Numbered from the stretch's first letter, positions 5,724 through 26,742 are shown. The stretch: 35,382 bases of DNA from Minisyncoccota bacterium (GCA_041675105.1 JBAYUL010000001.1:1-35382); one strand, 5' to 3'. The notes: generated by a model not told the origin, from the letters alone. A program made the numbers and translations.

Positions 5724-6677
5724 ATGGAAAAACCAAAAGTAACACCTAAGGACTTCGTGTTCTGGGTCGGGGCTATGGCCGCGCTCTACGGCGGCGTCGT
5801 TTCTTTTATCACCCTTATATTCGATTACATAAATCACGCATATCCGAATCCTGTGACGGGTGGGTATTACTATGATCCGTATTCGAGCAGCATCAGTTAT
5901 GAGACGGCGTCTCTCATCGTGCTCGCACCTGTATTCCTATTGCTCATGCGTCTCATACGCCGCGATATCGCGAACGATCCGACGAGGGGCGATATATGGA
6001 TCCGTCGCTGGGCACTTTTTCTCACACTGTTTCTCGCGGGTGCGACAATGGTCGTGGACCTCATCGTCCTACTGAATGCGTATCTGCAAGGAGAGGACCT
6101 CACGGTCGGTTTCTTGCTGAAAGTGCTCACGGTACTTCTCGTCGCCGGCCTTGGCTTCATGCACTTCATGGCGGATCTGTGGGGGTATTGGGAACGTGAG
6201 CGAGCGCGTGCGCGAATGGTCAATTGGGGAGTCGCCGTACTTGTTGTCTTTACGATAGTCGCCGGATTCTTTATTGTCGGCACTCCACAGCAAATGCGTC
6301 ATCTGAAACAGGACGCGCAGCGAGTACAGGATCTCCAGAATCTACAGTGGCAGGTGGTGAGTTATTGGCAACAGAAGCAAAAGCTTCCGACCACGCTCGA
6401 GCAGTTGAACGATCCGATAACGAACTACATCGTGCCGGTGGATCCGCAGACGAGGGAATCATACGAATACAAGTCAACGGGCGCGCTTGCGTTCCAGCTG
6501 TGCGCGACGTTCGCAGAGGTCGGCAACAGTGCGAATGATGGGCGCTCTGTCGCCAAGCCGGTAAGCGTCGACGGGGAGATCGCGCAAGACAATTGGCAGC
6601 ACGCGGCCGGTGATGTGTGTTTCGACCGCACCATAGATCCTGAGCGCTACCCTCCATTTAGCAAACAGACAAAATAG
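5724..6677 (+). CDS. DUF5671-type multi-pass membrane protein with an extracytoplasmic C-terminal domain
   Basis: 'KDFVFWVGAMAALYGGVVSFITLIFDYINHAYPN...YYYDPYSS...IRRWALFLTLFLAGATMVVDLIVLL' matches the DUF5671 pattern common in Parcubacteria, recalled from memory and not searched. Confidence 0.75.
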   Translation: MEKPKVTPKDFVFWVGAMAALYGGVVSFITLIFDYINHAYPNPVTGGYYYDPYSSSISYETASLIVLAPVFLLLMRLIRRDIANDPTRGDIWIRRWALFLTLFLAGATMVVDLIVLLNAYLQGEDLTVGFLLKVLTVLLVAGLGFMHFMADLWGYWERERARARMVNWGVAVLVVFTIVAGFFIVGTPQQMRHLKQDAQRVQDLQNLQWQVVSYWQQKQKLPTTLEQLNDPITNYIVPVDPQTRESYEYKSTGALAFQLCATFAEVGNSANDGRSVAKPVSVDGEIAQDNWQHAAGDVCFDRTIDPERYPPFSKQTK

Positions 6678-6699: not shown

Positions 6700-6724
6700 A
6701 AACGCCTCTTTTAGAGGCGTTTTG
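6700..6724 (+). terminator. Rho-independent terminator
   Basis: AAACGCCTCT-ttt-AGAGGCGTTT perfect stem followed by T residues, 23 nt after the stop at 6677. Confidence 0.8.
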
Positions 6725-6820: not shown

Positions 6821-9800
6821 ATGAAATACGATCACAAGTCGATTGAAAAGAAGTGGCAAAAGTTCTGGAGTGAGAACAAGATATATACGACGCCGGATAG
6901 CGCTCCGGGAAAGGACAATTTTTATCTGCTGGTAGAGTTCCCATACCCGTCTGGCAACCTCCACGTCGGTCACTGGTACGCGTTCGCGGTACCCGATATC
7001 CTTGCACGTTATGAGAGGATGAGGGGCAAAAACGTGATGTATCCCATCGGCTTTGATGCGTTCGGTCTCCCCGCGGAAAATGCGGCCATCAAGAATAAGC
7101 TCAATCCGCGCGATTGGACGGAGAAAAATATCGCGTATATGAAAAAGCAAATTGAGTCGATGGGGACATCGTTCGATTGGTCGCGGGAAGTGTCTACCAT
7201 CGACCCGGCGTACTACAAGTGGACGCAATGGCTTTTTCTCCAGCTCTACAAAAAAGGCTTGGTGTATCAGAAGGAAACCGCGGTCAACTGGTGTCCCGTG
7301 GACAAGACGGTGCTCGCCAATGAGCAGGTGATCGACGGCAAGTGTGACCGCTGCGGGTCGGAGGTAGAACAGCGGCAAATGCTCCAGTGGAATATCAAGA
7401 TCACTGATTACGCCGATAGACTCATCGACGACCTTGCGGCACTCGATTGGCCGGAGCAGATAAAGGAATCGCAGCGCAATTGGATAGGCCGCAGCGAGGG
7501 TGCTGAGATCGATTTTGCGTTAGACCTTGGAGCAAACGATGGCTCGCGATTTCTACTTCTGCACGGTCGCCAAGGGTCGCCTGAAGCCAACTTCTTTCCG
7601 TGGCTGAAGTCCGAACTTGAGGCAAGGGGCTATGAAGTAGAAGTGCCGCTTTTACCCAACACCGCTGAACCAAACGACGAAGAACAAGCAGATTTTGTTG
7701 TGAAGAACTGCAGGATAGATGAGCGGACTGTGATCATTGGCCACTCATTCGGAGGGGTGGTCGCAATGCGCCTCTTGGAGCGGGGACACAAGGCGCGTCG
7801 CGTCGTGTTCGTCGCGACGCCATGCAGCGGCGAATTTCTTGATGGGAAGGAGCGTCCGTCGGTCAAAGCGGCGATACTGAAGGGATTCGATTTTTTGGCC
7901 GTGCGGAAGAACGCTGACACTATTCAGGTGTTACCGGATGAATCTGATCCTGTCGTGCCCTTCGCTGACGCGGAGCTGCTCGCAAAAGAGACGGGCGGTA
8001 TGCTGGTGCGCGGCAAGGGCACCGAATACCATTTCACCGCGAAAGTAGAGCCGGATGTGCTCATGATGTGCGTCCCAACGATACGCGTATTCACGACGCG
8101 GCCGGACACGCTCTTCGGGGCGACGTATCTGGTGCTCGCGCCTGAGCATCCGTGGGTAACACTCGCGCTCGCGCACAAGACCGTTCTGAAGAACAACGAC
8201 GAGGTTCGAGCGTACGTTGACCGGACGGAGAGGATGTCCGACATGGACCGGCAAACGACCAGAGAGAAGACAGGCGTCCAGCTCAAGGGCGTGGACGCTA
8301 TTAATCCCGCAAACGGCGAAAAGATCCCGCTTTATATTGCCGACTACGTACTCGGGCACTACGGCACCGGCGCCATCATGGCAGTACCCGCGCACGACGA
8401 GCGCGATTTCGAATTCGCGAAAAAGTTTGATCTTCCGATAAAGCCCGTCGTAGAACCACAATATGTCGGGAAAGGGGAGGGTGAACCCAAACAAGGCGAA
8501 GACTTTGTAAAACGTAACGCGGTATGCGTTGTTGTCCGAAATCCGAAGGACGACACGTATCTTTGCATAAGCTGGAAGACAATGCTCATGCACGGGCTTG
8601 TGACGGGAGGCATTGAAGATGGCGAAGATCTTGTGGAAGCGGCGAAACGTGAAGTGCGGGAGGAGACAGGGTATAAGAATTTACGACTTGTCTGGAATCC
8701 TGGCATTGCGAATCACACTTTGTTCTATCATCGGGTAAAAAAACAGAATCGGTGGGCGCGATTTACGAACATATTCTTTGAGCTCGAGAACGACGAGCGT
8801 GACCCTATTGATCCCAAAGAGGAAGCGTTGCATGAAGTACTGTGGCTCAAGAGAGACAAGCTGAAGGATTTCTTTTCGGTATATGAAGGACGCTTCATCC
8901 TTGACCTGCTTGATCATCCCGACTATGTCCACACGGATGCGGGCGTGCTCCACAATTCCGGTGAGTTCGACTGGATGGGCTCCGAGGAGGCCAAGAAAGT
9001 AATGACAGGACGATTCGGACGCAAGAAAACGACGTACAAGCTTCGCGACTGGATAGTCTCGCGTCAGCGCTACTGGGGTGTGCCGATACCGATGATCCAT
9101 TGCGAGAAATGCGGCAACCAGCCAGTGCCCGATGAGCAGCTACCCGTGCTTCTACCCGATGTTGAAGATTACCTACCGGAAGGGAGCGGGAAATCGCCGC
9201 TTGCCAAAGTGAAGGATTTCGTAGAGATACTGTGTCCGCGGTGCGGAGGTAGAGCGCAGCGCGAAACAGATACGCTCGATACATTCGTCGACTCATCGTG
9301 GTACTTTTTGCGTTATCTCGACGCGAACAACGCGGACGAATTTGCGGCGCGAGAGAAACAAGGGATGTGGATGCCGGTGAATATGTACAGCGGGGGAGCC
9401 GAGCATACAACGATGCATCTTTTGTATAGCCGCTTTTGGCACAAAGCGCTCTTCGACATCGGGCTTGTCGGTGATGCGGAGCCGTACGCCCATCGTGTGA
9501 ATCATGGTCTTGTTCTGGGGCCTGACGGACAAAAGATGAGCAAATCAAAGGGCAATGTGCTTGATCCGGACGAGGTGGTGGAGAGGCTCGGAGCGGACAC
9601 GGTACGCATGTACCTTGCCTTTATGGGCCCGTACACGGGTGGAGCCAGCTATCCCTGGAATCCCGACGGGGTCGTGGGAGTGCGACGATTTCTCGAACGT
9701 GTGGCGCGGACCGAAGAGTACGTCCAGAGCTCGCACGTCGACGAATTGGATATGATATTGAACAAGACCATTCAGAAAGTCGGGGACGATATTTCAGTCT

Positions 9801-10204
9801 TTAAATTCAACACGGCAATCAGTCAGCTGATGATTCTGATGAATGCTATCGAGAAGACAAAGAAACTGGGGACAGACCAATGGAAACTCTTGCTGCACAT
9901 TCTTGCTCCGTTCGCACCTCACCTTGCTGAAGAGTTGTGGCATGTACTCGGCGGAACGGCATCCATTCATCTGGAGTCGTGGCCGAAGTATGATCCTTCC
10001 AAAACAGTCGATGACGAGATCGTTTTGGCGGTGCAAGTGGACGGGAAGACGCGAGGTGAAGTGAGGGTGAAAGCAGATGCAGATAAAGCCACTATCGAAA
10101 CGGCTGCGCGCGAAGCGGTCGCATCCAGACTGGAAGGGAAGACCGTGACGAAAACGATCGTCGTGCCAAAGCGGCTCGTGAACTTCGTGCTTAGCGCCTC
10201 GTGA
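6821..10204 (+). CDS. leuS: Leucyl-tRNA synthetase, unusually long (1127 aa) with two nested extra domains
   Basis: 'MKYDHKSIEKKWQKFW' canonical N-terminus at ATG 6821; the ORF-track TTG 6722 extension has no homology-like content. Motifs seen: HIGH 'HVGH', 'NWIGRSEGAEIDF', CP1 'TTRPDTLFGATY' and 'AHDERDFEFAKKF', 'YKLRDWIVSRQRYWGVPIP', KMSKS 'KMSKSKGN'. Confidence 0.95.
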   Translation: MKYDHKSIEKKWQKFWSENKIYTTPDSAPGKDNFYLLVEFPYPSGNLHVGHWYAFAVPDILARYERMRGKNVMYPIGFDAFGLPAENAAIKNKLNPRDWTEKNIAYMKKQIESMGTSFDWSREVSTIDPAYYKWTQWLFLQLYKKGLVYQKETAVNWCPVDKTVLANEQVIDGKCDRCGSEVEQRQMLQWNIKITDYADRLIDDLAALDWPEQIKESQRNWIGRSEGAEIDFALDLGANDGSRFLLLHGRQGSPEANFFPWLKSELEARGYEVEVPLLPNTAEPNDEEQADFVVKNCRIDERTVIIGHSFGGVVAMRLLERGHKARRVVFVATPCSGEFLDGKERPSVKAAILKGFDFLAVRKNADTIQVLPDESDPVVPFADAELLAKETGGMLVRGKGTEYHFTAKVEPDVLMMCVPTIRVFTTRPDTLFGATYLVLAPEHPWVTLALAHKTVLKNNDEVRAYVDRTERMSDMDRQTTREKTGVQLKGVDAINPANGEKIPLYIADYVLGHYGTGAIMAVPAHDERDFEFAKKFDLPIKPVVEPQYVGKGEGEPKQGEDFVKRNAVCVVVRNPKDDTYLCISWKTMLMHGLVTGGIEDGEDLVEAAKREVREETGYKNLRLVWNPGIANHTLFYHRVKKQNRWARFTNIFFELENDERDPIDPKEEALHEVLWLKRDKLKDFFSVYEGRFILDLLDHPDYVHTDAGVLHNSGEFDWMGSEEAKKVMTGRFGRKKTTYKLRDWIVSRQRYWGVPIPMIHCEKCGNQPVPDEQLPVLLPDVEDYLPEGSGKSPLAKVKDFVEILCPRCGGRAQRETDTLDTFVDSSWYFLRYLDANNADEFAAREKQGMWMPVNMYSGGAEHTTMHLLYSRFWHKALFDIGLVGDAEPYAHRVNHGLVLGPDGQKMSKSKGNVLDPDEVVERLGADTVRMYLAFMGPYTGGASYPWNPDGVVGVRRFLERVARTEEYVQSSHVDELDMILNKTIQKVGDDISVFKFNTAISQLMILMNAIEKTKKLGTDQWKLLLHILAPFAPHLAEELWHVLGGTASIHLESWPKYDPSKTVDDEIVLAVQVDGKTRGEVRVKADADKATIETAAREAVASRLEGKTVTKTIVVPKRLVNFVLSAS
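7523..8077 (+). other. In-frame insertion in LeuRS: YdeN/RBBP9-type alpha/beta serine hydrolase domain (~185 aa)
   Basis: 'FLLLHGRQGSPEANFFPWLK', nucleophile elbow 'IIGHSFGG' (Ser codon 7745-7747), 'DESDPVVPF' and 'EYHF'. Lies between the LeuRS motifs 'GAEIDF' and 'IRVFTTRPDT'. Confidence 0.8.
8450..8935 (+). other. In-frame insertion in LeuRS: Nudix hydrolase domain (~150 aa)
   Basis: Perfect Nudix box G-x5-E-x7-REVxEExGY: 'GGIEDGEDLVEAAKREVREETGY' (8606-8674). Lies between the LeuRS motifs 'AHDERDFEFAKKFDLPIKPV' and 'GVLHNSGEFDWMGSEEAKK'. Confidence 0.85.
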
Positions 10205-11651
10205 CACGGGGCCCCTCCGATTCGTCCTTTACTTCGTACCCGTGCTCCGCGATCGCAGCGCGAAGTTCGTCCGCGCGTCGCCAGTCCTTGTTGGACCGTG
10301 CCTCCTCGCGCTGTTCGATGAGCAATGCGATATGAGAAGGAAGATCACTCGCCCCGACATCGTTCTTTGTGAGTTGCTTCAGGATCGGCGGCTGAGAGAG
10401 CCCCAGCCCAAGGACGCGGTCCGCTGCGCGGATACCCGCCGCAATGTCCTCCGGAGAGAGTGCTGTATCTTTCGCCATCTCCCACAACACGGCAAGCGCT
10501 CCCGGCGTATCAAGGTCGTCGTTCACGCGCTCGGTGAATCGCTTCATGTACGCGGCGGGAGTGGTGCCGCCGTCGGGTTTGGCGTATGTGGCGAGACGCG
10601 AGAGAGCGATCGAGGATCCAGACAAAGATTCCCAACTGAAATTCGAACTCGTACGGTAGTGCGCTCCCAGGAAAAGGTAACGAAGCGCCAGCGGATGAAA
10701 TCCTCTTTCAACGACGTCGGAAAGATAGACAACGTTGCCATCCGATTTAGCGATCTTCTGGCTCTCGATCTGCACGTGCGCGCGATGCATCCAGAATCGC
10801 GAGAGAGGCTTCTTTCCCGTCACGGCTTCGGACTGCGCGATCTCATTGTTGTGGTGCACTGGTATGTGCTCGATGCCCCCGGTATGGATGTCGATCTGTT
10901 CACCGAGTGTGCGGCGAATCATGGCGGAACACTCGATGTGCCACCCGGGGAATCCTTTGCCCCACGGGCTCTCCCAACCGAGCTTCTTGTCGAGCTTCCA
11001 AAGCGCAAAATCCGTTGGGTGCCGTTTACCGGAGACGGCGGCGACGCGCGCCCCCTCCTTAAGTCCCGCAAGGTCGATGCCGCCAAGAGCGCCGTATCCC
11101 GAGAAGCGCGTAGTATCAAAATAGACGCCGTCGGATGCTCGGTACGCATACCCCTTTTGTTCGAGGGTCTCGATCATCGCGACCTGCGCAGGAATGTGGT
11201 CGCTCGCGCGGGGGAACTCGATGTGGCCGGTGTCGATATTGAGCGATCGAATGTCTTCCTGGAAGATCGCGGTGTATTTCTCGGCAAGTTCCCGCATGTT
11301 CTCGAGCGTGAGTTTTTTGCCCTCGCGTTTCAGACCTTTGCTCATCTTGTCCTCGCCCTCGTCGGCATCCGACGTGAGATGGCCGACATCGGTGATGTTG
11401 ATGACTTGGCGGACGGTAAAGCCATTGAACTCGAGAGTACGGCGGAGCACGTCGGCGAATACGAACATAGAAAGATTGCCGATATGTTGCTTCCCGTAGA
11501 CCGTGGGTCCGCAGTTGTACATGCGCACTGTGTGCGCACGCGGGGGGAGCGTGAATTGCTGCGAGTCCTTAACAAGAGTGTTGTATAGAAAAAGGGGCGT
11601 ATCGGTTGGTAGCTGCGTCTTTTTACGGGACCAGAGGAAGGGAAACTTCAT
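10191..11651 (-). CDS. cysS: Cysteinyl-tRNA synthetase
   Basis: 'MYNCGPTVYGKQHIGN' HIGH region, 'WHIECSAM', KMSKS-like 'KIAKSDGN'. Start set at ATG 11651 (MKFPFLW...), which has CATACT 7 nt upstream. The ORF track begins at TTG 11687. The 3' end overlaps leuS by 14 nt, convergently. Confidence 0.95.
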   Translation of the reverse strand: MKFPFLWSRKKTQLPTDTPLFLYNTLVKDSQQFTLPPRAHTVRMYNCGPTVYGKQHIGNLSMFVFADVLRRTLEFNGFTVRQVINITDVGHLTSDADEGEDKMSKGLKREGKKLTLENMRELAEKYTAIFQEDIRSLNIDTGHIEFPRASDHIPAQVAMIETLEQKGYAYRASDGVYFDTTRFSGYGALGGIDLAGLKEGARVAAVSGKRHPTDFALWKLDKKLGWESPWGKGFPGWHIECSAMIRRTLGEQIDIHTGGIEHIPVHHNNEIAQSEAVTGKKPLSRFWMHRAHVQIESQKIAKSDGNVVYLSDVVERGFHPLALRYLFLGAHYRTSSNFSWESLSGSSIALSRLATYAKPDGGTTPAAYMKRFTERVNDDLDTPGALAVLWEMAKDTALSPEDIAAGIRAADRVLGLGLSQPPILKQLTKNDVGASDLPSHIALLIEQREEARSNKDWRRADELRAAIAEHGYEVKDESEGPRVTRR

Positions 11652-11658
11652 CCGGTAC

Positions 11659-11664
11659 AGTATG
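11659..11664 (-). promoter_or_regulatory. -10-like box CATACT, 7 nt upstream of cysS ATG 11651
   Basis: Minus strand: tcCATACTgtaccggATG. Confidence 0.35.
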
Positions 11665-11725
11665 GACGTAATACAGCGTATCTTCAAGCGCCATCTACGC
11701 CGTGTGGTAGGATATTGGCAACGAC

Positions 11726-16672: not shown

Positions 16673-17263
16673 ATGATAGCTGTCGACGTGGAGGCGACCG
16701 GAACGGAGCCGACCAAACATTCAATTGTGAGCATAGGGGCGCTCGATGTGGAGAACCCAACGAACCGTTTTTATATGGAATGCCGCATGTGGGATGGCGC
16801 GCATGTCATGGAGGGGGCGCTGGCGGTCAACGGTTTTACGATGACGCAGATCAAGGACCCGGCGAAGGCGAGCGAGGCGGACCTCACTCATGCGTTCCGT
16901 GCGTGGGCCGATACCGTCGAGAACCGCACCTTCGCAGGCCAGAACGTGTCATTCGACCGTGACTTTCTCAAGGAAGCAGCGGAGCGGGCGGGGCATACCG
17001 ACTGGCCTTTTGCTCATCGCACACTCGATACACACACGATGGCATACATGCACATGATCAGCCGCGGTCAGAAGCCGCCGATGCGTCTCCATCGCTCCGC
17101 GCTCAACCTCGATGCGATCTTGAATTATTGCGGCATCCCTGAGGAGCCGTCGCCGCACAACGCGCTCACCGGAGCCCTCTGTCATGCGGAGGTTATCTCC
17201 CGGCTTCTCTATGGCCGCAAGCTCCTACCCGAGTTCATGCATCTCGAGATCCCGTGGAAGTAA
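16673..17263 (+). CDS. DEDDh-type 3'-5' exonuclease (DnaQ/RNase T-like)
   Basis: ExoI 'IAVDVEATG', ExoII 'GQNVSFDRDFL', ExoIII 'HNALTGALCHAE'. Confidence 0.85.
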   Translation: MIAVDVEATGTEPTKHSIVSIGALDVENPTNRFYMECRMWDGAHVMEGALAVNGFTMTQIKDPAKASEADLTHAFRAWADTVENRTFAGQNVSFDRDFLKEAAERAGHTDWPFAHRTLDTHTMAYMHMISRGQKPPMRLHRSALNLDAILNYCGIPEEPSPHNALTGALCHAEVISRLLYGRKLLPEFMHLEIPWK

Positions 17264-17272
17264 TTTCTTGGT

Positions 17273-17776
17273 ATGGAAAACGTCGAGATAGTGGAGATAA
17301 CGCCGGACGAGTGGAAGACACTCCGCGATCTTCGTAGAGAGGCCGTCATGGAATCACCTGCGGCGTTCGGTCAGAATGAGGAAGAGGTGGATTCAGTCGA
17401 AGAGAAAGAGTGGAGAACGCGGCTCTCCAAGCATTCGTACTTGTTCGTAAAAAAGGGGAATGCGTTCGTTGGTATGGGTTGTGTTGTGCCCGAAAAGAAT
17501 GCGAAAAGTAAGCACGGGGCGAACATATACGGCCTCTACGTTTCTCCTCAAGAGCGGGGCAATGGCACTGGTCGAAAGCTGCTCGAGGCGCTTATCGAGC
17601 ACGCGAGGCGATGGTATCCCGACCTTATCAAGATATCGCTCATCGCTTCGGCAACTCAATCCGCCGCACTCTCGCTTTATGAGAGTACGGGATTCAAACG
17701 GATCGGAGTTCTTGAGAAGGAGATGAATATCAATGGAACGTACGTGGATGAAGTAATGCTCGTGAAATTCTTATAA
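17273..17776 (+). CDS. GNAT family N-acetyltransferase
   Basis: Acetyl-CoA binding motif A 'YVSPQERGNGTGRKLLEALIEHA' and 'YESTGFKRIG'. Confidence 0.85.
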   Translation: MENVEIVEITPDEWKTLRDLRREAVMESPAAFGQNEEEVDSVEEKEWRTRLSKHSYLFVKKGNAFVGMGCVVPEKNAKSKHGANIYGLYVSPQERGNGTGRKLLEALIEHARRWYPDLIKISLIASATQSAALSLYESTGFKRIGVLEKEMNINGTYVDEVMLVKFL

Positions 17777-17784
17777 CATTTTTT

Positions 17785-18285
17785 ATGAAAATCATCCGCA
17801 GAGCGGGGATGTATCTTTCGCTTTCTTTCATTGGGGCGCTCCACATCATCCGCTATTGGGTATCCATATTAATGGGCGATGAGGGATCGCAAGGGGTGCG
17901 CATCATTCTCGTCGATGACCGTCGGGTGCTCCTGGTCGCGCACTGGTATGCACCGTGGACATGGACGCTTCCGGGCGGCGGAGTTGATCGCGGAGAAACT
18001 GCCGAAGCAGCCGCGATGCGCGAGGCGCTTGAAGAAACGGGTCTCAAAGTGAATTCGGTCGCCGGCGAAATAGGTACCTATACCGGCTCGATGGGGAAGA
18101 GAGACCTGCTTACCGTATTCTATACGGGCGATTTCAGCGGTTCCCTCGCGCTTACTCCAAATTTCGAGATCATGGCCCGCAGCTGGTTTGATATCGATAA
18201 TCTGCCCGCGGAGCTCTCACCGGCGAACAGGCGACGTATAGAGGCTTACAGGGACGGCATCAGAGGGGAGCGTGCCCGTTGGTAA
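17785..18285 (+). CDS. Nudix hydrolase
   Basis: Nudix box 'GGGVDRGETAEAAAMREALEETGL'. Confidence 0.85.
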   Translation: MKIIRRAGMYLSLSFIGALHIIRYWVSILMGDEGSQGVRIILVDDRRVLLVAHWYAPWTWTLPGGGVDRGETAEAAAMREALEETGLKVNSVAGEIGTYTGSMGKRDLLTVFYTGDFSGSLALTPNFEIMARSWFDIDNLPAELSPANRRRIEAYRDGIRGERARW

Positions 18286-18810: not shown

Positions 18811-19578
18811 CTATTCCTTTGACCCTTTAAACACACGGTGCCGGCAATTGCCCAGATACCGAGAGTAATACTGCTCGTCCGTCAGAACTTCCTCACCATT
18901 CAGCTCGTCTAAGAGAGACCAAAGTGATGACGTTCCTCGCGAAATGAATGGACGCAAGACATTCCTAGATGCCACATATGATTTCTGGTTTCTTAATCGG
19001 GGATCGGTGAAAGCTTTCGCCATATATTTTGCAAGGTAGTTGGCTATCTTGATATGCCCGTCAGTTTTTTTGTAGTAAACGAATCCCATACCCCATTTCA
19101 TTGCGATTGTTCGAGTAGTCCGTTCTTGTGATACCACCTCCTCGGGTAGCCCCCAGAACAAACTGTGAAAATGAACAGCTCCACGTTTTTGGAATTCAGG
19201 GACGGCAATGTACTTGAATGATTTGCCGTAGCTGTAGCGGAGAGCTTGGTTAAAAGCGCGGAGACGTTTGTATCCGTAAGAGAGATCGGTAATGATATCT
19301 TTGCAGGTAAGAGTAATGAGTACAGGAAGTTCAGATCCGACAAGGTTAGCTTCGACCAGTCTTCTAAAATCCATTTTTGCGCGTCGCGAATGATCGTGTC
19401 TTTTCCCCAACTTCCCTTTCGATACAGAATTGCCTCCATCAGCTCCCAAATCCACATTTGAAGCGTTAGTCTCACGTTTTGGTGATGGGCGTCTTCGTCG
19501 ATCCACCACCCTTGGTTCTCGTTGGTATTCATATATTTCTGTTTTATTCCCGTATTGAATTACTTTGTTGTAGCCCAT
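18811..19578 (-). CDS. HUH-superfamily rolling-circle replication initiator (two-tyrosine, phiX174 gpA-like)
   Basis: Motif 1 'VLITLT' (19320-19306), motif 2 HUH 'AVHFHSLFW' (HFH at 19173-19165), motif 3 'NYLAKYMAK' = YxxKY (19038-19024). Start set at ATG 19578, because the upstream part of the ORF-track call overlaps a terminator and a hairpin. Confidence 0.8.
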   Translation of the reverse strand: MGYNKVIQYGNKTEIYEYQREPRVVDRRRRPSPKRETNASNVDLGADGGNSVSKGKLGKRHDHSRRAKMDFRRLVEANLVGSELPVLITLTCKDIITDLSYGYKRLRAFNQALRYSYGKSFKYIAVPEFQKRGAVHFHSLFWGLPEEVVSQERTTRTIAMKWGMGFVYYKKTDGHIKIANYLAKYMAKAFTDPRLRNQKSYVASRNVLRPFISRGTSSLWSLLDELNGEEVLTDEQYYSRYLGNCRHRVFKGSKE

Positions 19579-19600
19579 TGAATTCTTAGCTATTTGTACT

Positions 19601-19676
19601 GAGTGGCGCGTATAGCAAGTCTGGACAGCCGGCCGCGGCGCTAAAGCGCCTGCGGCACGCCTGTCCGGCGCCACTC
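19601..19676. other. 76-nt GC-rich composite stem-loop upstream of rep: candidate double-strand origin / nick site
   Basis: Outer stem GAGTGGCGC/GCGCCACTC (19601-19609/19668-19676), middle stem GGACAG/CTGTCC (19623-19628/19661-19666), inner ~12-bp GC stem with TAAA loop. A 13-nt asymmetric internal loop reads AGACTTGCTATAC on the rep strand. Confidence 0.5.
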
Positions 19677-19686
19677 CCCTCTCTCT

Positions 19687-19715
19687 GTATAAAAATTCCC
19701 TGCATGACAGCAGGG
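19687..19715 (-). terminator. Rho-independent terminator after the wHTH gene
   Basis: Minus strand: CCCTGC-tgtcat-GCAGGG followed by AATTTTTATAC, ~35 nt after the stop at 19751. Confidence 0.65.
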
Positions 19716-19750
19716 TGCTACAGAACGAGAACCAAGTGTATGGGAACGTT

Positions 19751-20635
19751 TTAACTTTGTTTTGACTCGTCCGAATCTTCGCCAAAAACAAGGCGATATC
19801 CCACTTGAGCGACATTGTGGAGCACGTCGAGCTTCAGTTTCTCCTTGATGCCTTGAATGATCGGATACAGATCCATTCGATCTGTTTTCGTAGGTTCAGT
19901 CCGATTAGGGTAAGCTGCCCGTATAAGATCAGCGTGCGAAGCCTGCATATCAGGACTCTCACACAGGGCAAGTAGCACCTTAAACTCCTTTGATGAGGGC
20001 GTGAAAGTTCCTCGGACATCGCTGAGGACGAAGTCTCCTGTACGGCGGTTGAGGAGTAGAGGGCATTCTTTAGCCGGAGGCTCTTTGGGTGCTTCCATTT
20101 TGGGCAACTTCTCAACCTCTGCAAGGAGCATCAAATGAAACTGTTTTAGCCTATTCTCGAATGATTCACGATTCGCATATCGGCGGGCAAGCCGCTTTAG
20201 ATTCTCCCTGCCCCATTTTGTGGGTGATCTCTTTGCATATTCGGGGTTGATATTCTCGACGCCTTTCATCATGACAAGAGCTTCGGGGTATAAATCATAC
20301 TCAGGCTCGTTGATAGCGTTTTTATAGTCCTCAAGTGGGTCATACACCCATGCTTCAGTAAAACAACCGACGGCATAGAGACTAAAGCGCTCAAGTCGAT
20401 CTGTGCGTTCTGCCCTATCATCAGCCTCCTCGTCAGTTAGTTTGTGATCACGTTCCCATACGGCAATGTGCTTTTCTCGAAGTTCGTTTTCGCTCGCCTC
20501 ATAAAGCCCGTGCAAGACAGGGTCTTTAATTACAAGGTCAAAATAGTGATGTAGGTTTTGATAGAACCTCGAATTGTTGTCGCTCTCGAACACAGCATCG
20601 TAGCGGATTTTTAGGGACTCTTGCAGATTAATCAT
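19751..20635 (-). CDS. Protein with C-terminal OmpR/PhoB-type winged-helix DNA-binding domain; N-terminal ~190 aa unknown
   Basis: C-terminus 'FTPSSKEFKVLLALCESPDMQASHADLIRAAYP...TDRMDLYPIIQGIKEKLK...AQVGYRLVF' follows the Trans_reg_C pattern. There is no receiver domain. Confidence 0.6.
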   Translation of the reverse strand: MINLQESLKIRYDAVFESDNNSRFYQNLHHYFDLVIKDPVLHGLYEASENELREKHIAVWERDHKLTDEEADDRAERTDRLERFSLYAVGCFTEAWVYDPLEDYKNAINEPEYDLYPEALVMMKGVENINPEYAKRSPTKWGRENLKRLARRYANRESFENRLKQFHLMLLAEVEKLPKMEAPKEPPAKECPLLLNRRTGDFVLSDVRGTFTPSSKEFKVLLALCESPDMQASHADLIRAAYPNRTEPTKTDRMDLYPIIQGIKEKLKLDVLHNVAQVGYRLVFGEDSDESKQS

Positions 20636-24127: not shown

Positions 24128-25402
24128 TCATAAATAATTAAGCGGATTCAGATAGCCGCTGATCGGCGGCACCGGCATTACAGCTCCCGCACACGGCGTT
24201 GTCGCTTTTGTCGCGTCGCCGAGTTTGAGTATTTTGGTCACGGCGGTCACGTAGACCCCGAAATGGAGATGCGGGCCGGTTGCATAGCCCGTTTCGCCGC
24301 TGTAACCGAGCAGTTGGCCGGTGGCAACGGATTGGCCCTGTGTGACGTTTACCTGGGAAAGGTGCGCGTACATGGTGCTGAGGCCGTTGTTGTGCCGCAC
24401 CATGACCCATTTGCCGAACGAGTAGCAGCCGCGCACCAGATCGGTATTACCGGTGCCGGCAATAGTACCGCCGAGCGCCGATTTGATCGGAGTGCCGATG
24501 GGTGCGGCAAAGTCCATGCCGTTGTGACCCTTGCCGCCGTAGGCACCGGAAGCGGCGAACGGCGTATTACCGAAGTACTGCGTAATGCGCACGTTGTCGA
24601 GCGGCCAATGCAGCACTCCTTTGCCGGCCGGAGTTATTTGCGAAGGGTTCACGGCAACGTTCAGCTGCGCTTTCAGGTTGCTGAGCGCCGCTTCGAAACT
24701 CTCCTGCTGCGCCTTCTTCTGTGCAAGTATTTTTTGATAGGTCGATTCCTGCGATTTTGTCTGCGCGAGGAGTTCCGCCTGTGCGCGTCGAGTCGCATCT
24801 AGAGAGCCCTGCTGAGAAGCGAGCGTCTGCTGCTGTTTGAGGAGCTGTGCCCGTTTCGATTCCGCCGTCGCCTTTGATTCCGACAAGCTCTTCTTTTCTT
24901 GTGCGAGCCTTTCGATATCCGTTTGGACCGCGCTCTGTATGTTCGCGATGTAATCGATATCTTGCCACGCGTCCGAAATATCCGCAGCTGAAAGTACGGA
25001 AATGGACAGTGGCTGCTGTTCGGTCTCGTTGAGCGAGCGTATCGATTGAGCCAGCCCGGCCCGGTCGCCCTCGATCGTCGTTTGCTTGTCGGCGATACCG
25101 CTCGCGAGTTGTTGGATCTGGATCTCAGTTGTTTTGATCTGGCTCTTCGTTACGGTGATGGATGCGGTAAGTTTCTTTCGCTGCAGATCGAGTTGTGAGA
25201 TCTTATTCTGCAACGTGTTCTTCTGCTTCGTCGTCGAATCGAGTTGCGCCTGGTATTGCGCTATCTCTTTATTGAGCTGCTCGATCTGGGCGTTGTTTTG
25301 CTCGATCTGTTGCTGCAATTCCGCTTCTGATTGTGCGAAGGAAAAAACAGGCAATAGAATAAGCGCGAACAGCATGTACGCGAACAAGTATCTAAGCGTC
25401 AT
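24128..25402 (-). CDS. M23 family metallopeptidase with N-terminal coiled coil (EnvC-like murein hydrolase/activator)
   Basis: Signal/TM 'MTLRYLFAYMLFALILLPVFSFA', a Q-rich coiled coil, and M23 motifs 'HNGMDFAAPIGTPI' and 'GYSGETGYATGPHLHFGVY'. Start ATG 25402 overlaps the gltX stop (ATGA). Confidence 0.9.
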   Translation of the reverse strand: MTLRYLFAYMLFALILLPVFSFAQSEAELQQQIEQNNAQIEQLNKEIAQYQAQLDSTTKQKNTLQNKISQLDLQRKKLTASITVTKSQIKTTEIQIQQLASGIADKQTTIEGDRAGLAQSIRSLNETEQQPLSISVLSAADISDAWQDIDYIANIQSAVQTDIERLAQEKKSLSESKATAESKRAQLLKQQQTLASQQGSLDATRRAQAELLAQTKSQESTYQKILAQKKAQQESFEAALSNLKAQLNVAVNPSQITPAGKGVLHWPLDNVRITQYFGNTPFAASGAYGGKGHNGMDFAAPIGTPIKSALGGTIAGTGNTDLVRGCYSFGKWVMVRHNNGLSTMYAHLSQVNVTQGQSVATGQLLGYSGETGYATGPHLHFGVYVTAVTKILKLGDATKATTPCAGAVMPVPPISGYLNPLNYL

Positions 25403-26742
25403 ACGAGAACGGAGATGCCCCTCTTGATCCGTGCGAGCGTCGTGTCTTTTCCAATGATCGATGCGATAAGGAATGGGTCTGGAGATCGCGCACGGCCGGA
25501 GAGCGCGTACCGGAGCGGCCACAATACGGCACCTCTTCCCTTTGTTGTCGCGTAATCCCACACGATACCCTTGAGACGTTCGGGGTCGGCGAAGATTTCT
25601 TCCGACGCGCTGCTCAGCAATTCATGAAGCGCCGAGAGATGCTCCGCGGCTTCCGCCGGGGACGCACTTTTTCCGGGCAATTCAGACGCGTCGGGTGTCG
25701 GATCGTTAAAGAAGCAGTCGAACTCACCCTCTAGAGCAAGGTCATTGATGTCACTCCAGACACTGATGCGCTCTTTGACTATCGGCATTATGCGCATGCC
25801 CATCTCCGCATTCCAGAGCAGGCCCCGCTCCCCTGCCACCTTTTGAAGGATGGGCATGACCTGGTGCGCAAATTCGTCATCGCTCAGCTTTAGTATGTAC
25901 TCGCGGTTGTACCAGCGGAGCTTCTCGATATCGAATACGGCGCCGCTTTTGTGAAGGTCTTCCAGTTCGAATTCTTCCACCATTTCGGCAAGCGTAAGGA
26001 TCTCTCGTCCCGAGGGCGGCGTCCAGCCGAGCACGGCTATGTAATTAAGAAGCGCCTCAGGCAGGAATCCCTTTTCTCGGTAGCTACGCACGGCGACATC
26101 CCCGGTGCGCTTCGAGAGTTTTGATTTGTCGGAACCAAGATGCAGCGGGTAGTGAGCGTAGTGCGGTCGCTCGTATCCAAGTGCCTCCTGAATAAGTATC
26201 TGGCGCGGCGTGTTCGATATATGATCCTCACCGCGGATGATATGCGTGATGCCCTGCGTGGCGTCATCAACGACGACAGCGAGATGATAGAGCGGATCGT
26301 CGATGGCGCGCCCGATGGTAAAGTCTCCGAGCTCTGTAGTATCGAATGTGATATCGCCACGTACGATATCCGTGAAGGTCACCGATCTGCCAGGGTTTCG
26401 CAGTCGTATTACTTGCACGAGTTTCCCCGGCTCTTTTTTGCTTTCCTCTTCTGATACGTATGCTTTGTTCTCCTTCACGAGCTGCTGCATGGCCTCTGTG
26501 TGAGCTGCGACGAGCTCCGTGGTGCGGCTGAACTCATCCCATGAGAGTCCGAGCCATTTGAGCTGCTCTTTAATATCCTCTTCGTATTCGATCTTGCTGC
26601 GCTCTTTGTCGGTGTCCTCGCTGCGGAAGAATATCGTGCCGCCATGTTTTTTGGCGAAGAGGTAGTTGAGGACAGCCATACGCGCGGTGCCCACGTGGCA
26701 GTACCCTGTCGGGCTTGGGGGAAATCGTACGCGCACACTCAT
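25399..26742 (-). CDS. gltX: Glutamyl-tRNA synthetase
   Basis: 'RVRFPPSPTGYCHVGTARMAVLNYLFAK' (HIGH region) and 'KLSKR' (KMSKS-like). Confidence 0.95.
   Translation of the reverse strand: MSVRVRFPPSPTGYCHVGTARMAVLNYLFAKKHGGTIFFRSEDTDKERSKIEYEEDIKEQLKWLGLSWDEFSRTTELVAAHTEAMQQLVKENKAYVSEEESKKEPGKLVQVIRLRNPGRSVTFTDIVRGDITFDTTELGDFTIGRAIDDPLYHLAVVVDDATQGITHIIRGEDHISNTPRQILIQEALGYERPHYAHYPLHLGSDKSKLSKRTGDVAVRSYREKGFLPEALLNYIAVLGWTPPSGREILTLAEMVEEFELEDLHKSGAVFDIEKLRWYNREYILKLSDDEFAHQVMPILQKVAGERGLLWNAEMGMRIMPIVKERISVWSDINDLALEGEFDCFFNDPTPDASELPGKSASPAEAAEHLSALHELLSSASEEIFADPERLKGIVWDYATTKGRGAVLWPLRYALSGRARSPDPFLIASIIGKDTTLARIKRGISVLV

Follow-up and report, generated by a model that had tools for sequence, protein, structure and literature searches.

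A YdeN/RBBP9-type serine hydrolase domain nested in the editing domain of a bacterial leucyl-tRNA synthetase, probably an undescribed helper of its host enzyme

The leuS gene and its two inserts

The window analyzed here is a 35,382-nucleotide stretch of DNA from a Minisyncoccota bacterium (GCA_041675105.1, JBAYUL010000001.1:1-35382), which represents one metagenome-assembled contig. It contains a leuS gene (Table 1) whose translation from the ATG at 6821 to the stop codon at 10204 reproduces the product length of 1127 aa given in the initial annotation. The longest open reading frame in this frame starts with TTG at 6722 and encodes 1160 aa; the leuS orthologs of 1122-1136 aa align starting at ATG 6821. 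An identical copy of this LeuRS is present in the NCBI database (P0008). The protein belongs to the bacterial-type LeuRS, with a full-length match to the NCBIfam profile TIGR00396, leuS_bact (968.7 bits, with the cut-off of 548.4), and contains both the HIGH and KMSKS motifs (HVGH, aa 48; KMSKS, aa 905). Pfam identifies the tRNA-synt_1, tRNA-synt_1_2 and Anticodon_1 domains, the latter at aa 980-1089. Rfam and tRNA scans of the whole window yield no match.

Table 1. Features of the leuS gene discussed in the text
Feature	Position (nt)	Strand	Evidence
leuS, bacterial-type LeuRS, 1127 aa, host to both inserts	6821..10204	+	TIGR00396, Pfam
NWIGRSEGAEIDF (aa 220-232), the strand that enters CP1 and borders the hydrolase insert on its N-terminal side	7478..7516	+	conservation, AlphaFold2
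Inserted YdeN/RBBP9-type serine hydrolase domain (aa 233-420)	7517..8080	+	PF06821, PDB profile, AlphaFold2, Foldseek
His248, LHG motif	7562..7564	+	H in 116/116 inserts
Ser309, predicted nucleophile in G-H-S-F-G	7745..7747	+	S in 116/116; aligns with RBBP9 Ser75
Asp373-Asp376, DESD, predicted triad acid	7937..7948	+	D373 in 116/116; D376 aligns with RBBP9 Asp138
His404, predicted catalytic histidine (YHF)	8030..8032	+	H in 116/116; aligns with RBBP9 His165
Glu410, EP..L motif, signature of the LeuRS-associated subfamily	8048..8050	+	E in 115/116
Core of the CP1 editing domain, editing site intact (aa 421-552)	8081..8476	+	PF13603 E=5.1e-53, editing residues
Nudix hydrolase domain forming the second insert (aa ~553-700), with the Nudix box at 8606-8674	8477..8920	+	PF00293 E=1.5e-13
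Remainder of LeuRS, comprising the CP1 exit, the second catalytic-domain half, and the anticodon-binding and C-terminal domains	8921..10201	+	TIGR00396 stretch 702-1124

The hydrolase insert consists of 188 aa located between NWIGRSEGAEIDF and the IRVFTTRPDT motif that begins at aa 421, in good agreement with the approximately 185 in-frame residues noted initially (7523-8077, i.e., aa 235-419). As also noted, its composition is similar to that of the host gene (GC content of 0.56 compared to 0.54 in the remaining part of leuS), and it is free of stop codons. The entry strand shows a median identity of 100% to the window sequence among 119 orthologs, and in the AlphaFold2 model, the N- and C-terminal borders of the insert pair as beta-strands (E2-5 with E192-195). 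In an alignment with the LeuRS of E. coli, the insert replaces the 7-residue loop 235-241; all E. coli numbering used here depends on the reference sequence of this alignment. The original description of the insert as a graft on the editing hinge holds with respect to the presence of an additional hydrolytic module but not with respect to its location, which is the first beta-hairpin within CP1 rather than the hinge strands.

The CP1 core of the window protein retains all seven residues of the editing pocket, including the Thr-rich motif and the Asp. In the E. coli numbering, T248, R249, D251, T252, D342 and D345 show no variation across 120 sequences, and position 247 is T in 117 of these. 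Of the leuS genes located beside a gene for a free-standing hydrolase, only one (L011) encodes a degenerate Thr-rich motif, DSVPQT. Given that the canonical editing residues are all retained, the hydrolase represents an addition to CP1, and the possibility that it replaces a dead CP1 site is rejected.

The second insert contains a Nudix box, GGIEDGEDLVEAAKREVREETGY (aa 596-618), that fits the GX5EX7REUXEEXGU pattern. Among 108 sequences, G596, E611, E615 and G617 are invariant, and E614, R610 and E602 are conserved in 105, 103 and 100, respectively. The AlphaFold2 model of this insert (pLDDT 92.9) adopts the Nudix fold. A profile search places Ap4A hydrolases marginally first (E~1e-8) and a Foldseek search places MutT/NudI-type proteins first; because the matches are only to small, generic Nudix enzymes, assignment of a substrate to this domain is not justified.

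Family, fold and catalytic residues of the hydrolase insert

A Pfam search identifies the Ser_hydrolase domain (PF06821) at aa 245-398 with E=5.8e-8 and a score of 33.3 bits, above the gathering score of 22; the match spans positions 2-148 of the 172 in the model. Comparison of the insert profile with the PDB detects RBBP9 (E=2.7e-32) and YdeN (E=6.9e-30), both with E~1e-30. The AlphaFold2 model of the insert has a pLDDT of 95 and a pTM of 0.92, and a Foldseek search started with this model retrieves RBBP9 with TM scores of 0.79-0.85. The top 7 matches are all to RBBP9 or YdeN (TM 0.72-0.85, rmsd 2.2-3.6 A), followed, at E~1e-7, by generic esterases with TM of about 0.5-0.7. The insert shares with human RBBP9 (PDB 2QS9, 7OEX and 9FCR) and Bacillus subtilis YdeN (1UXO) the same minimal, cap-less fold of about 180 aa, as well as the order of the HG motif, the G-x-S-x-G nucleophile, the acid and the histidine, so that the score, the fold and the order of the triad all place it in the PF06821 family. 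The substrate loop is also similar to that of RBBP9, with L103, D105 and R109 of the latter corresponding to F339, D341 and R345 of the insert. However, the insert is only about 22% identical to RBBP9 and YdeN and, unlike these free-standing proteins, is nested in another enzyme. As judged from the profiles and the predicted structure, the insert is a complete, independently folding alpha/beta hydrolase of the YdeN/RBBP9 type, which is what the initial annotation proposed with regard to both the family and the independent folding.

The insert contains the motifs FLLLHG (aa 244), GHSFG (aa 307), DESDPVVPF (aa 373) and EYHF (aa 402), and the previously recognized order and spacing of the Ser/Asp/His triad correspond to S75, D138 and H165 of RBBP9. 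The glycines flanking the predicted nucleophile are conserved in 115 (G307) and 116 (G311) of the 116 LeuRS inserts compared, and His248, by the alpha/beta-hydrolase convention, presumably belongs to the oxyanion-hole region. The assignment of the acid to the DESDPVVPF motif is accurate insofar as an acid is present, but the residue that aligns with the family acid, D376, and the residue that is invariant among the inserts, D373, are not the same. Position 376 is occupied by D in 100 inserts, by E in 14 and by other residues in 2, and some of the LeuRS inserts located after CP1 contain F or Y at this position while retaining D373, which is therefore probably able to act as the acid. The orthologous inserts are only about 39% identical to one another, compared to 72-81% in the catalytic core of LeuRS, and despite this divergence, Ser309, His404, Asp373 and His248 are invariant. 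Thus, the catalytic residues are conserved among the orthologous inserts, and the domain is not decayed.

Glu410 is present in the inserts of LeuRS, ValRS, AlaRS, TsaD and SecA but is replaced by Ser in the EngA insert, and the corresponding position is gapped or variable in most of the classic free-standing YdeN-like proteins. The classic RBBP9/YdeN members also contain Ser in place of Asp373, in contrast to the subfamily of the insert, which is characterized by the invariant Asp373 and Glu410 in the EP..L motif.

Distribution of the inserts

The insert is present at the identical site, in frame, in 116 of the 120 LeuRS clusters closest to the window protein, from Kaiserbacteria/Paceibacteria and derived from independent assemblies (JGI, ENA, NCBI and Logan). 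This common architecture excludes a mis-assembly, a concern raised for the original observation. The chance that the insert is a product of chimeric assembly, or a decayed domain that serves as a mere spacer, is negligible, considering the shared in-frame location in 116 clusters, the invariant Ser, His and Asp, the pLDDT of 95 and the GC content matching that of the host gene.

A second insertion site in LeuRS, downstream of CP1 and corresponding to approximately 439-443 in the E. coli numbering, is found in P0145, P0184, P0160, P0172, P0190 and P0181. The LeuRS of these lineages also accommodates other inserts, among them Nudix, a Y1_Tnp domain of the IS200-like type (P0181) and stretches of 170-370 aa that match no assigned domain. 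A search for related loci with the single insert detects three, all of them LeuRS genes encoding 940-1134 aa; the names "Woesearchaeota" and "Saccharibacteria" in the respective records are unreliable bin labels. Comparison of the insert with a word index of 5.8 billion proteins yields only 7 free-standing proteins and misses the LeuRS hosts, which reflects the sensitivity limit of this approach; the hosts are recovered by a whole-protein search and an exhaustive profile search.

The architecture is common in public databases and is undescribed rather than unseen. The proteins are automatically named, e.g., "alpha/beta fold hydrolase", "class I tRNA ligase family protein" or "NUDIX domain-containing protein". 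A full-text literature search found no description of a LeuRS with such a hydrolase insert, in line with the initial impression that this architecture had escaped description, and neither a curated model nor a paper was found for the LeuRS with both the hydrolase and the Nudix domain, which NCBI names inconsistently.

Genomic association of the hydrolase subfamily with leuS

The inserts of aminoacyl-tRNA synthetases (aaRS) and a group of free-standing proteins have the signature residues D373, E410 and R345 in common; a neighbor-joining tree of these domains, which includes highly divergent sequences and carries no support values, was used only alongside the signature residues. In 6 of the 8 contexts with readable flanking DNA, the gene for the free-standing member, of about 180 aa, immediately precedes leuS or is part of the leuS operon. 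Specifically, P0137 lies 6 nt upstream of a leuS gene encoding 809 aa, P0138 2 nt upstream and P0164 36 nt upstream of leuS; P0162 lies 24 nt upstream of a leuS gene for a 957-aa protein that contains the Nudix insert but not the hydrolase insert; P0174 abuts a gene for a 957-aa class I aaRS whose N-terminus is most similar to LeuRS; and P0159 belongs to a tight operon that encodes two hydrolases, a YbaK-like tRNA_edit protein, a Ham1-like protein and an archaeal-type LeuRS. In a seventh context, P0169, the distance to leuS is 1.35 kb. In contrast, the classic free-standing proteins P0001 and P0003, examined as a control, are encoded next to peptidases of the M1 and S51 families, not next to leuS. 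The association with aaRS accordingly extends to both the fused form, at two sites of LeuRS, and the free-standing form.

Among the top 150 representative clusters, about 45 are LeuRS, with one cluster for each of the other hosts, although this share is biased by the search profile, which was derived mostly from inserts of LeuRS. TsaD, SecA and EngA contain closely related domains as inserts, and others are fused to adenylate kinase, LspA, peptidase S51, HD, glyoxalase and nucleotidyltransferase domains. Apart from LeuRS, the synthetase hosts include one ValRS (P0180) and one AlaRS (P0183). Among the 120 closest AlaRS clusters, none contains the hydrolase domain. P0183 is thus an isolated case among AlaRS, the idea that all editing synthetases repeatedly recruited the domain is rejected, and the non-LeuRS hosts are regarded as sporadic.

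The best explanation of the signature and the gene neighborhoods appears to be that the insert is a member of a separate subfamily whose function is linked to that of LeuRS. Very probably, the domain is enzymatically active as a hydrolase and acts in functional association with LeuRS, and it is probably an undescribed helper of this enzyme.

Possible functions of the hydrolase

From the identity, fold and conservation of the domain and its coupling to leuS, we infer a substrate and a role in editing. In most lineages, this subfamily is represented either by a protein of about 180 aa whose gene immediately precedes leuS or by a LeuRS domain at the entry or exit of CP1. In the window protein, the hydrolase, built in the first beta-hairpin of CP1 beside the Thr-rich editing motif, would supplement the intact site. 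The Ser-His-Asp triad implies covalent acyl-enzyme catalysis, which would proceed via an acyl-Ser309 intermediate; no aaRS editing module is known to use this type of catalysis. The likely substrate would be a hydrophobic aminoacyl group whose alpha-amine is free, with an aminoacyl ester as the most likely form, and the possible targets include the 3' end of mischarged tRNA(Leu) and released non-cognate aminoacyl-adenylate or aminoacyl-nucleoside. The initial, cautious suggestion that the insert could act on mischarged tRNA, aminoacyl-adenylate or an unrelated ester is now backed by the gene neighborhoods described above. LeuRS would gain a second proofreading or clean-up activity with a specificity unlike that of CP1, and the nucleotide by-product might be processed by the co-inserted Nudix domain (or, in one operon, by the Ham1-like enzyme). 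The chance that the domain is a LeuRS-coupled editing enzyme or aminoacyl-ester hydrolase of this kind seems to fall slightly short of even. More tentatively, the domain might represent an unrecognized class of proofreading enzymes, namely, alpha/beta-hydrolases, free-standing or built into CP1, that deacylate mischarged tRNA(Leu) or destroy non-cognate aminoacyl-adenylate via an acyl-serine and form a multi-step quality-control module with a Nudix or Ham1 pyrophosphatase in Patescibacteria and in some lineages with the archaeal-type LeuRS.

Valacyclovir is an ester formed by an amino acid and a nucleoside analogue. RBBP9 splits off individual hydrophobic amino acids that bear a free alpha-amine. 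This enzyme also activates valacyclovir (Shenoy et al. 2020, as cited in PMC7730578). As in RBBP9, the pocket of the insert is hydrophobic (F339, V378, V379 and F310, along with D341 and R345), whereas Glu108, the alpha-amine anchor of RBBP9, is not conserved, the equivalent position 344 being variable, which counts against a role in editing. Several further observations point in the same direction: the need for additional editing is not obvious given that CP1 is already intact; the proximity of classic family members to peptidases favors peptide rather than tRNA substrates; and the sporadic insertion and fusion in unrelated proteins indicate that the domain tolerates many hosts. Recognition of the free alpha-ammonium via acidic residues is known in other serine hydrolases of the alpha/beta-hydrolase fold, the alpha-amino-acid ester hydrolases BPHL/valacyclovirase and the bacterial AEHs, which cleave amino-acid esters, including those of nucleoside analogues, and by analogy, the invariant D373, E410 and D341 of the insert could perform this role. 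BPHL and the AEHs belong to other subfamilies, are larger and contain cap domains, and neither the sequence nor the fold searches run here place them close to the insert.

The arrangement resembles known editing systems in that a hydrolytic module is located on or beside a synthetase, as with the CP1 domains of LeuRS, IleRS and ValRS and the trans-editing factors YbaK/ProXp, AlaXp and DTD. Similarly to INS/YbaK and to the AlaRS editing domain/AlaXp, the hydrolase exists in both inserted and free-standing forms, and it accompanies a YbaK-like protein in one operon, but its fold is unrelated to those of CP1 and the trans-editing factors. Isoleucine--tRNA ligase with an N-acetyltransferase domain (NCBIfam NF040702) is another class Ia synthetase that carries a small-molecule-modifying domain, a variant architecture of a kind that annotation pipelines recognize; the additional domains of LeuRS differ in being an alpha/beta hydrolase and Nudix and in being nested in CP1 rather than appended.

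A role in amino-acid supply, whereby an RBBP9-like aminopeptidase would clip hydrophobic N-terminal residues, including Leu, from scavenged peptides and feed the tethered or co-expressed LeuRS of these amino-acid-auxotrophic bacteria, is compatible with the aminopeptidase activity of RBBP9, which traps Leu/Ile and Met among others, with the classic free-standing relatives located beside, or fused with, M1 and S51 peptidases, and with the conserved hydrophobic pocket, where position 378 is taken by smaller residues (A/V/I), as would be appropriate for aliphatic side chains. Nevertheless, this role seems unlikely: tethering brings little advantage for a diffusible product, the insertions are at the entry and exit of the editing domain rather than at a terminus, and the one operon that combines the hydrolases with a nucleotide pyrophosphatase and a YbaK-like deacylase of aminoacyl-tRNA speaks of quality control, not nutrition. 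Moreover, in the set examined, the subfamily is almost exclusively linked to LeuRS, with other synthetases for hydrophobic residues represented by one ValRS and one AlaRS. A similarly low probability is assigned to the hydrolase being a passenger independent of its host, i.e., a general house-cleaning esterase that, like Nudix, is parked by streamlined genomes in tolerant loops on the surface of essential proteins with high expression, with LeuRS as a mere scaffold and expression vehicle. Such a passenger would fit the variety of insertion and fusion hosts listed above, the other inserts accepted by the same LeuRS and the roughly 2-fold faster evolution of the insert compared to the LeuRS core, but would predict neither the free-standing form upstream of leuS in 6 of the 8 readable contexts, with both bacterial- and archaeal-type LeuRS, nor two separate insertion sites in LeuRS. 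The prevalence of LeuRS among the best 150 clusters also argues against it, with the caveat of the LeuRS-heavy profile.

Self-protection, a built-in antidote in which the hydrolase would cleave the aminoacyl-nucleotide bond of leucyl-adenylate mimics, natural inhibitors of LeuRS of the agrocin-84 or microcin C type, and the Nudix or Ham1 enzyme would degrade the nucleotide, appears improbable. The family chemistry, in which cleavage of an amide or ester releases an amino acid whose alpha-amine is free, and the consistent presence of a nucleotide pyrophosphatase partner (Nudix inserts or the Ham1-like protein) are indirectly suggestive of such a function. The serine peptidase MccF detoxifies processed microcin C by this kind of cleavage, and the NCBIfam model ileS_w_GNAT demonstrates that aaRS with built-in modifying domains exist. 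However, no toxin is known from these lineages, there is no immunity-island context around leuS within the window, and a diffusible inhibitor could be destroyed without a tether to CP1.

Implications

The proofreading by aaRS is thought to be limited to a few well-catalogued editing folds, namely, CP1, INS/YbaK, DTD and the editing domain of AlaX/ThrRS; none is known to employ a covalent intermediate. The findings described here indicate that a large clade of uncultivated, genome-reduced bacteria has retained two hydrolases, one of the serine type and one of the Nudix type, within the editing domain of LeuRS, with conservation of the catalytic residues, and that related lineages encode the serine hydrolase as a separate gene beside leuS. 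If the serine hydrolase acts on aminoacyl esters, it would represent both a new fold and a new chemistry for translational quality control, and would illustrate how translation fidelity is handled by minimal genomes, perhaps because the amino-acid pools scavenged from the hosts are unbalanced. Even if the actual role is in amino-acid supply or as an antidote, the coupling to leuS would provide a context for the orphan bacterial enzymes of the YdeN/RBBP9 family.

Domain architecture of the leucyl-tRNA synthetase

The leuS gene of the window (plus strand, ATG at 6821, stop codon ending at 10204) encodes a bacterial-type leucyl-tRNA synthetase (LeuRS) of 1127 aa, the length stated in the initial annotation, and its product matches the NCBIfam model leuS_bact with 968.7 bits (cut-off 548). 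A Pfam search identifies the domains expected for class I catalysis, LeuRS editing (PF13603) and anticodon binding, and two additional ones, a serine hydrolase and a Nudix domain (see the table). The initial annotation had proposed a hydrolase nested at the entry of the CP1 editing domain; the motifs that it quoted are all found in place, and the composition of the insert indeed matches the rest of the gene (GC 0.56 vs 0.54 in the remainder of leuS). In an alignment with the E. coli LeuRS sequence, the insert replaces a short loop (E. coli residues 235-241) that connects the first CP1 strand to the one leading into the Thr-rich editing motif.

Features of the window LeuRS and positions of free-standing clade I hydrolases (P handles) relative to leuS genes
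Feature	Position	Strand	Remarks
Serine hydrolase insert	aa 233-420, nt 7517-8080	+	between NWIGRSEGAEIDF and IRVFTTRPDT
Border motif NWIGRSEGAEIDF	aa 220-232	+	N-terminal side of insert
Insert motifs	FLLLHG 244, GHSFG 307, DESDPVVPF 373, EYHF 402	+	from the sequence
Border motif IRVFTTRPDT	from aa 421	+	C-terminal side of insert
Ser_hydrolase PF06821	aa 245-398	+	E=5.8e-8, 33.3 bits, gathering score 22
NUDIX PF00293	aa 564-681	+	Pfam E=1.5e-13
P0137	6 nt upstream of leuS		LeuRS of 809 aa
P0138	2 nt upstream of leuS
P0162 (locus L015)	24 nt upstream of leuS		LeuRS of 957 aa with Nudix insert, without hydrolase insert
P0164	36 nt upstream of leuS		LeuRS of 801 aa
P0174	adjoining a class I synthetase gene		synthetase of 957 aa, N-terminus closest to LeuRS
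P0159	first gene of a tight operon		operon ends in archaeal-type LeuRS
P0169	1.35 kb upstream of leuS

A profile made from an alignment of the window insert with 28 orthologous inserts and 7 free-standing homologues and compared with all PDB sequences retrieves human RBBP9 (E=2.7e-32) and B. subtilis YdeN (E=6.9e-30), the next match being at 1e-7. In the AlphaFold2 model obtained from the same alignment (insert mean pLDDT 95, pTM 0.92), the two LeuRS border strands form a pair, which is the arrangement to be expected if a domain is inserted into a hairpin. In a Foldseek search of the PDB, the 7 best matches are chains of RBBP9 and YdeN (TM 0.72-0.85, rmsd 2.2-3.6 A). The searches for an alpha/beta-hydrolase profile and for an independent fold that had been suggested both bear the proposal out, the Pfam score lying above the gathering score; by profile, fold and triad, the insert is a member of PF06821.

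Conservation of the three hydrolytic sites

The whole protein is identical to an NCBI entry under the name [quoted passage not shown], encoded on a contig of 35382 nt. The next 119 clusters among the matches listed, which come from JGI, ENA, NCBI and Logan assemblies and, where named, from Kaiserbacteria, Parcubacteria or Paceibacterota, show 57-73% identity over the best local alignment. Both inserts are present in 104 of the 120 aligned sequences, the hydrolase only in 12 (LeuRSs of ~970-1005 aa) and the Nudix domain only in 4 (~947-965 aa). Such recurrence of the hydrolase, in 116 of 120 related LeuRSs from several sources, argues against the chimeric assembly that had been considered. Ser309, His404, Asp373, His248 and Gly311 are invariant in all 116 hydrolase-bearing sequences, so that the domain is not decayed, and Gly307 is kept in 115; the position of Asp376, which aligns with the catalytic Asp138 of RBBP9, is occupied by Asp in 100, Glu in 14 and other residues in 2. 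This invariance, despite a median identity to orthologues of ~39% for the insert (72-81% across both catalytic-domain halves), indicates that catalysis is under purifying selection. An artefact or a decayed domain, given the fold model, the family profile, the occurrence in multiple assemblies and the invariant catalytic residues, is so improbable that we consider it excluded.

The protein is a LeuRS with an intact CP1 site: in all 120 listed sequences the editing residues that correspond to E. coli T248, R249, D251, T252, D342 and D345 are invariant, and the one that corresponds to T247 is Thr in 117. On sequence grounds, the hydrolase is an addition to an intact CP1 site and no substitute for one. 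The second insert (window positions 8477-8920, aa ~553-700) lies in the C-terminal part of CP1, in the loop corresponding to E. coli ~360-373, and is closest to small Nudix proteins of the MutT/NudI/Ap4A-hydrolase type. Its Nudix box (8606-8674), a perfect one, was compared in 108 sequences, with G596, E611, E615 and G617 invariant and E614, R610 and E602 kept in 105, 103 and 100, respectively. Conserved catalytic residues in CP1, the serine hydrolase and the Nudix domain thus make three hydrolytic sites in one protein.

Other hosts and subfamily structure

Searched exhaustively with a profile, 1.84 billion representative proteins yield 7090 relatives at E<=1e-3, 401 of them at E<=1e-30. Among the best 150, which were classified, ~45 are LeuRSs, the majority with the domain at the CP1-entry site; the order is reversed, with Nudix ahead of the hydrolase, in some (P0133, P0136 and P0148), and a distinct group (P0145, P0184, P0160, P0172, P0190 and P0181) uses a second site directly after CP1 (E. 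coli ~439-443, straight after “RDWxxSRQRYWGxPIP” and next to a CxxC knuckle). Several post-CP1 inserts have Phe or Tyr at 376 and retain Asp373, which can therefore probably serve as the triad acid. One representative each among the best 150 has the domain within another essential protein, namely ValRS (P0180), AlaRS (P0183), TsaD (P0197), SecA (P0161) and EngA/Der (P0247), with catalytic Ser and His kept and an acid at 373 and/or 376. The AlaRS case is isolated, PF06821 being found in none of the 120 closest AlaRS clusters. Other fusions in this set involve adenylate kinase, LspA, peptidase S51, Nudix, HD, glyoxalase and nucleotidyltransferase domains.

A neighbor-joining tree (without support values) and signature residues split the family into two clades. 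Clade I comprises the LeuRS, ValRS, AlaRS, TsaD, SecA and EngA inserts and some genuine ~180-aa proteins, with Asp at 373, Glu410 in “EP..L” and usually Arg345, a few members differing at one position. Clade II consists of classic free-standing YdeN-like proteins (Ser at 373) and terminal fusions to unrelated enzymes.

Further insertions occur in these LeuRSs. The 998-aa LeuRS P0181 also carries, in frame inside CP1, an IS200-like Y1 transposase domain (residues 269-374, PF01797, E=5.4e-14), which may hint at the way in which foreign domains enter LeuRS loops. Four LeuRSs (P0140, P0154, P0168 and P0176) have additional inserts of ~170-370 aa, without family assignment, situated between CP1 core and second catalytic half or ahead of the anticodon-binding domain. 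In these lineages, LeuRS seems to be a hot spot of domain insertion.

Genomic context

Neighborhoods were sought for 9 free-standing clade I proteins (P0165 is without DNA); most positions are listed in the table, and the short contigs of P0144 contain no leuS. The P0159 operon (locus L014, 5001-9882 of JAHZTO010004402.1, NCBI GCA_020049755.1) encodes, in this order, Ser_hydrolase proteins of 182 and 192 aa, a YbaK-like tRNA_edit protein (162 aa), a Ham1/RdgB-like NTP pyrophosphatase (205 aa) and an archaeal-type LeuRS (883 aa; NF008957, 850 bits). It resembles a complete gene cluster for LeuRS quality control, in a lineage whose enzyme is of archaeal type; the parallel between Nudix and Ham1 suggests a nucleotide pyrophosphatase as a further component of the hydrolase-LeuRS module. 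Two proteins of clade II served as controls; they adjoin genes for peptidases M1 and S51, and leuS is not adjacent. Fusion together with conserved adjacency is a classic signature of functional coupling, and the hydrolase domain shows the genomic coupling to leuS expected of an editing factor.

The leuS downstream of P0138 (locus L011, 2831-4558) has a degenerate Thr-rich motif, “DSVPQT” vs “TTRPDT”, and keeps “AHDERDF”; judging from these motifs, the separate hydrolase may compensate for a weakened CP1 site.

In the window, the neighbors of leuS include no free-standing hydrolase or editing factor. Directly upstream lies a gene for a 317-aa DUF5671 membrane protein (5724-6677, plus strand); cysS (10191-11687, minus strand) is convergent with leuS, the longest ORFs overlapping by 14 nt. 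Another synthetase gene, gltX (25399-26742, minus strand), matches tRNA-synt_1c in 2 stretches and, weakly, DUF6445 at the N-terminus. Three small genes lie side by side at 16673-18285 (plus strand), for a 3'-5' exonuclease similar to RNase T, a GNAT acetyltransferase and a free-standing Nudix hydrolase. The ORF at 18811-19815 (minus strand) contains the replication-initiator domain REP_ORF2-G2P (E=1.3e-16; the RepSA match is weak) and is followed by ORFs without family match; this region may be an integrated small replicon or a phage remnant.

Predicted function

To our knowledge, RBBP9 is the sole family member with a defined activity. Valacyclovir is a nucleoside analogue esterified with L-valine; aminoacyl-tRNA is likewise an ester, between an amino acid whose alpha-amine is free and a ribonucleoside, and the known LeuRS editing substrates Ile, Met and norvaline are hydrophobic. 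[quoted passage not shown] 2020.

In the comparison with the pocket of RBBP9, whose reference sequence is in agreement with the PDB alignment, L103 corresponds to F339 of the insert (F/Y/W in 112 of 116 inserts), D105 to D341 (D in 99), R109 to R345 (R in 112), and F140 and L141 to V378 and V379 (A/V/I and V/I among inserts). The amine anchor E108 has no conserved counterpart, the invariant D373 and E410 being candidate replacements.

The insert is very probably an active hydrolase functionally tied to LeuRS. The chemistry of RBBP9, the nature of the aminoacyl-tRNA ester and the hydrophobic editing substrates underlie the proposal that the domain would be a LeuRS-coupled aminoacyl hydrolase working via acyl-Ser309 and would most likely provide a second proofreading or clean-up step, on mischarged tRNA(Leu) or released aminoacyl-adenylate; by analogy with RBBP9, we give this reading a little less than an even chance. 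An aminopeptidase that supplies Leu to the synthetase, although consistent with the RBBP9 activity and the peptidase neighbors of clade II, leaves the placement in CP1 and the operon with YbaK and Ham1 unexplained and appears rather unlikely. A passenger domain independent of its host, also unlikely, accords with the sporadic hosts and the broad tolerance of these LeuRSs to inserts but does not predict a free-standing gene adjoining leuS. The chemistry of a built-in antidote to leucyl-adenylate mimics is attractive given the Nudix and Ham1 partners, and this role is quite improbable.

A full-text literature search finds no paper on LeuRSs with an alpha/beta-hydrolase or Nudix domain and no link between serine hydrolases and trans-editing, in agreement with the initial annotation, which was not aware of a described LeuRS of this architecture; NCBI names of these insert-bearing proteins are inconsistent. 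The window LeuRS is a synthetase with extra catalytic modules, a kind already known, and its putative aminoacyl hydrolase domain is, tentatively, a candidate for a proofreading factor of a new class that uses covalent catalysis.
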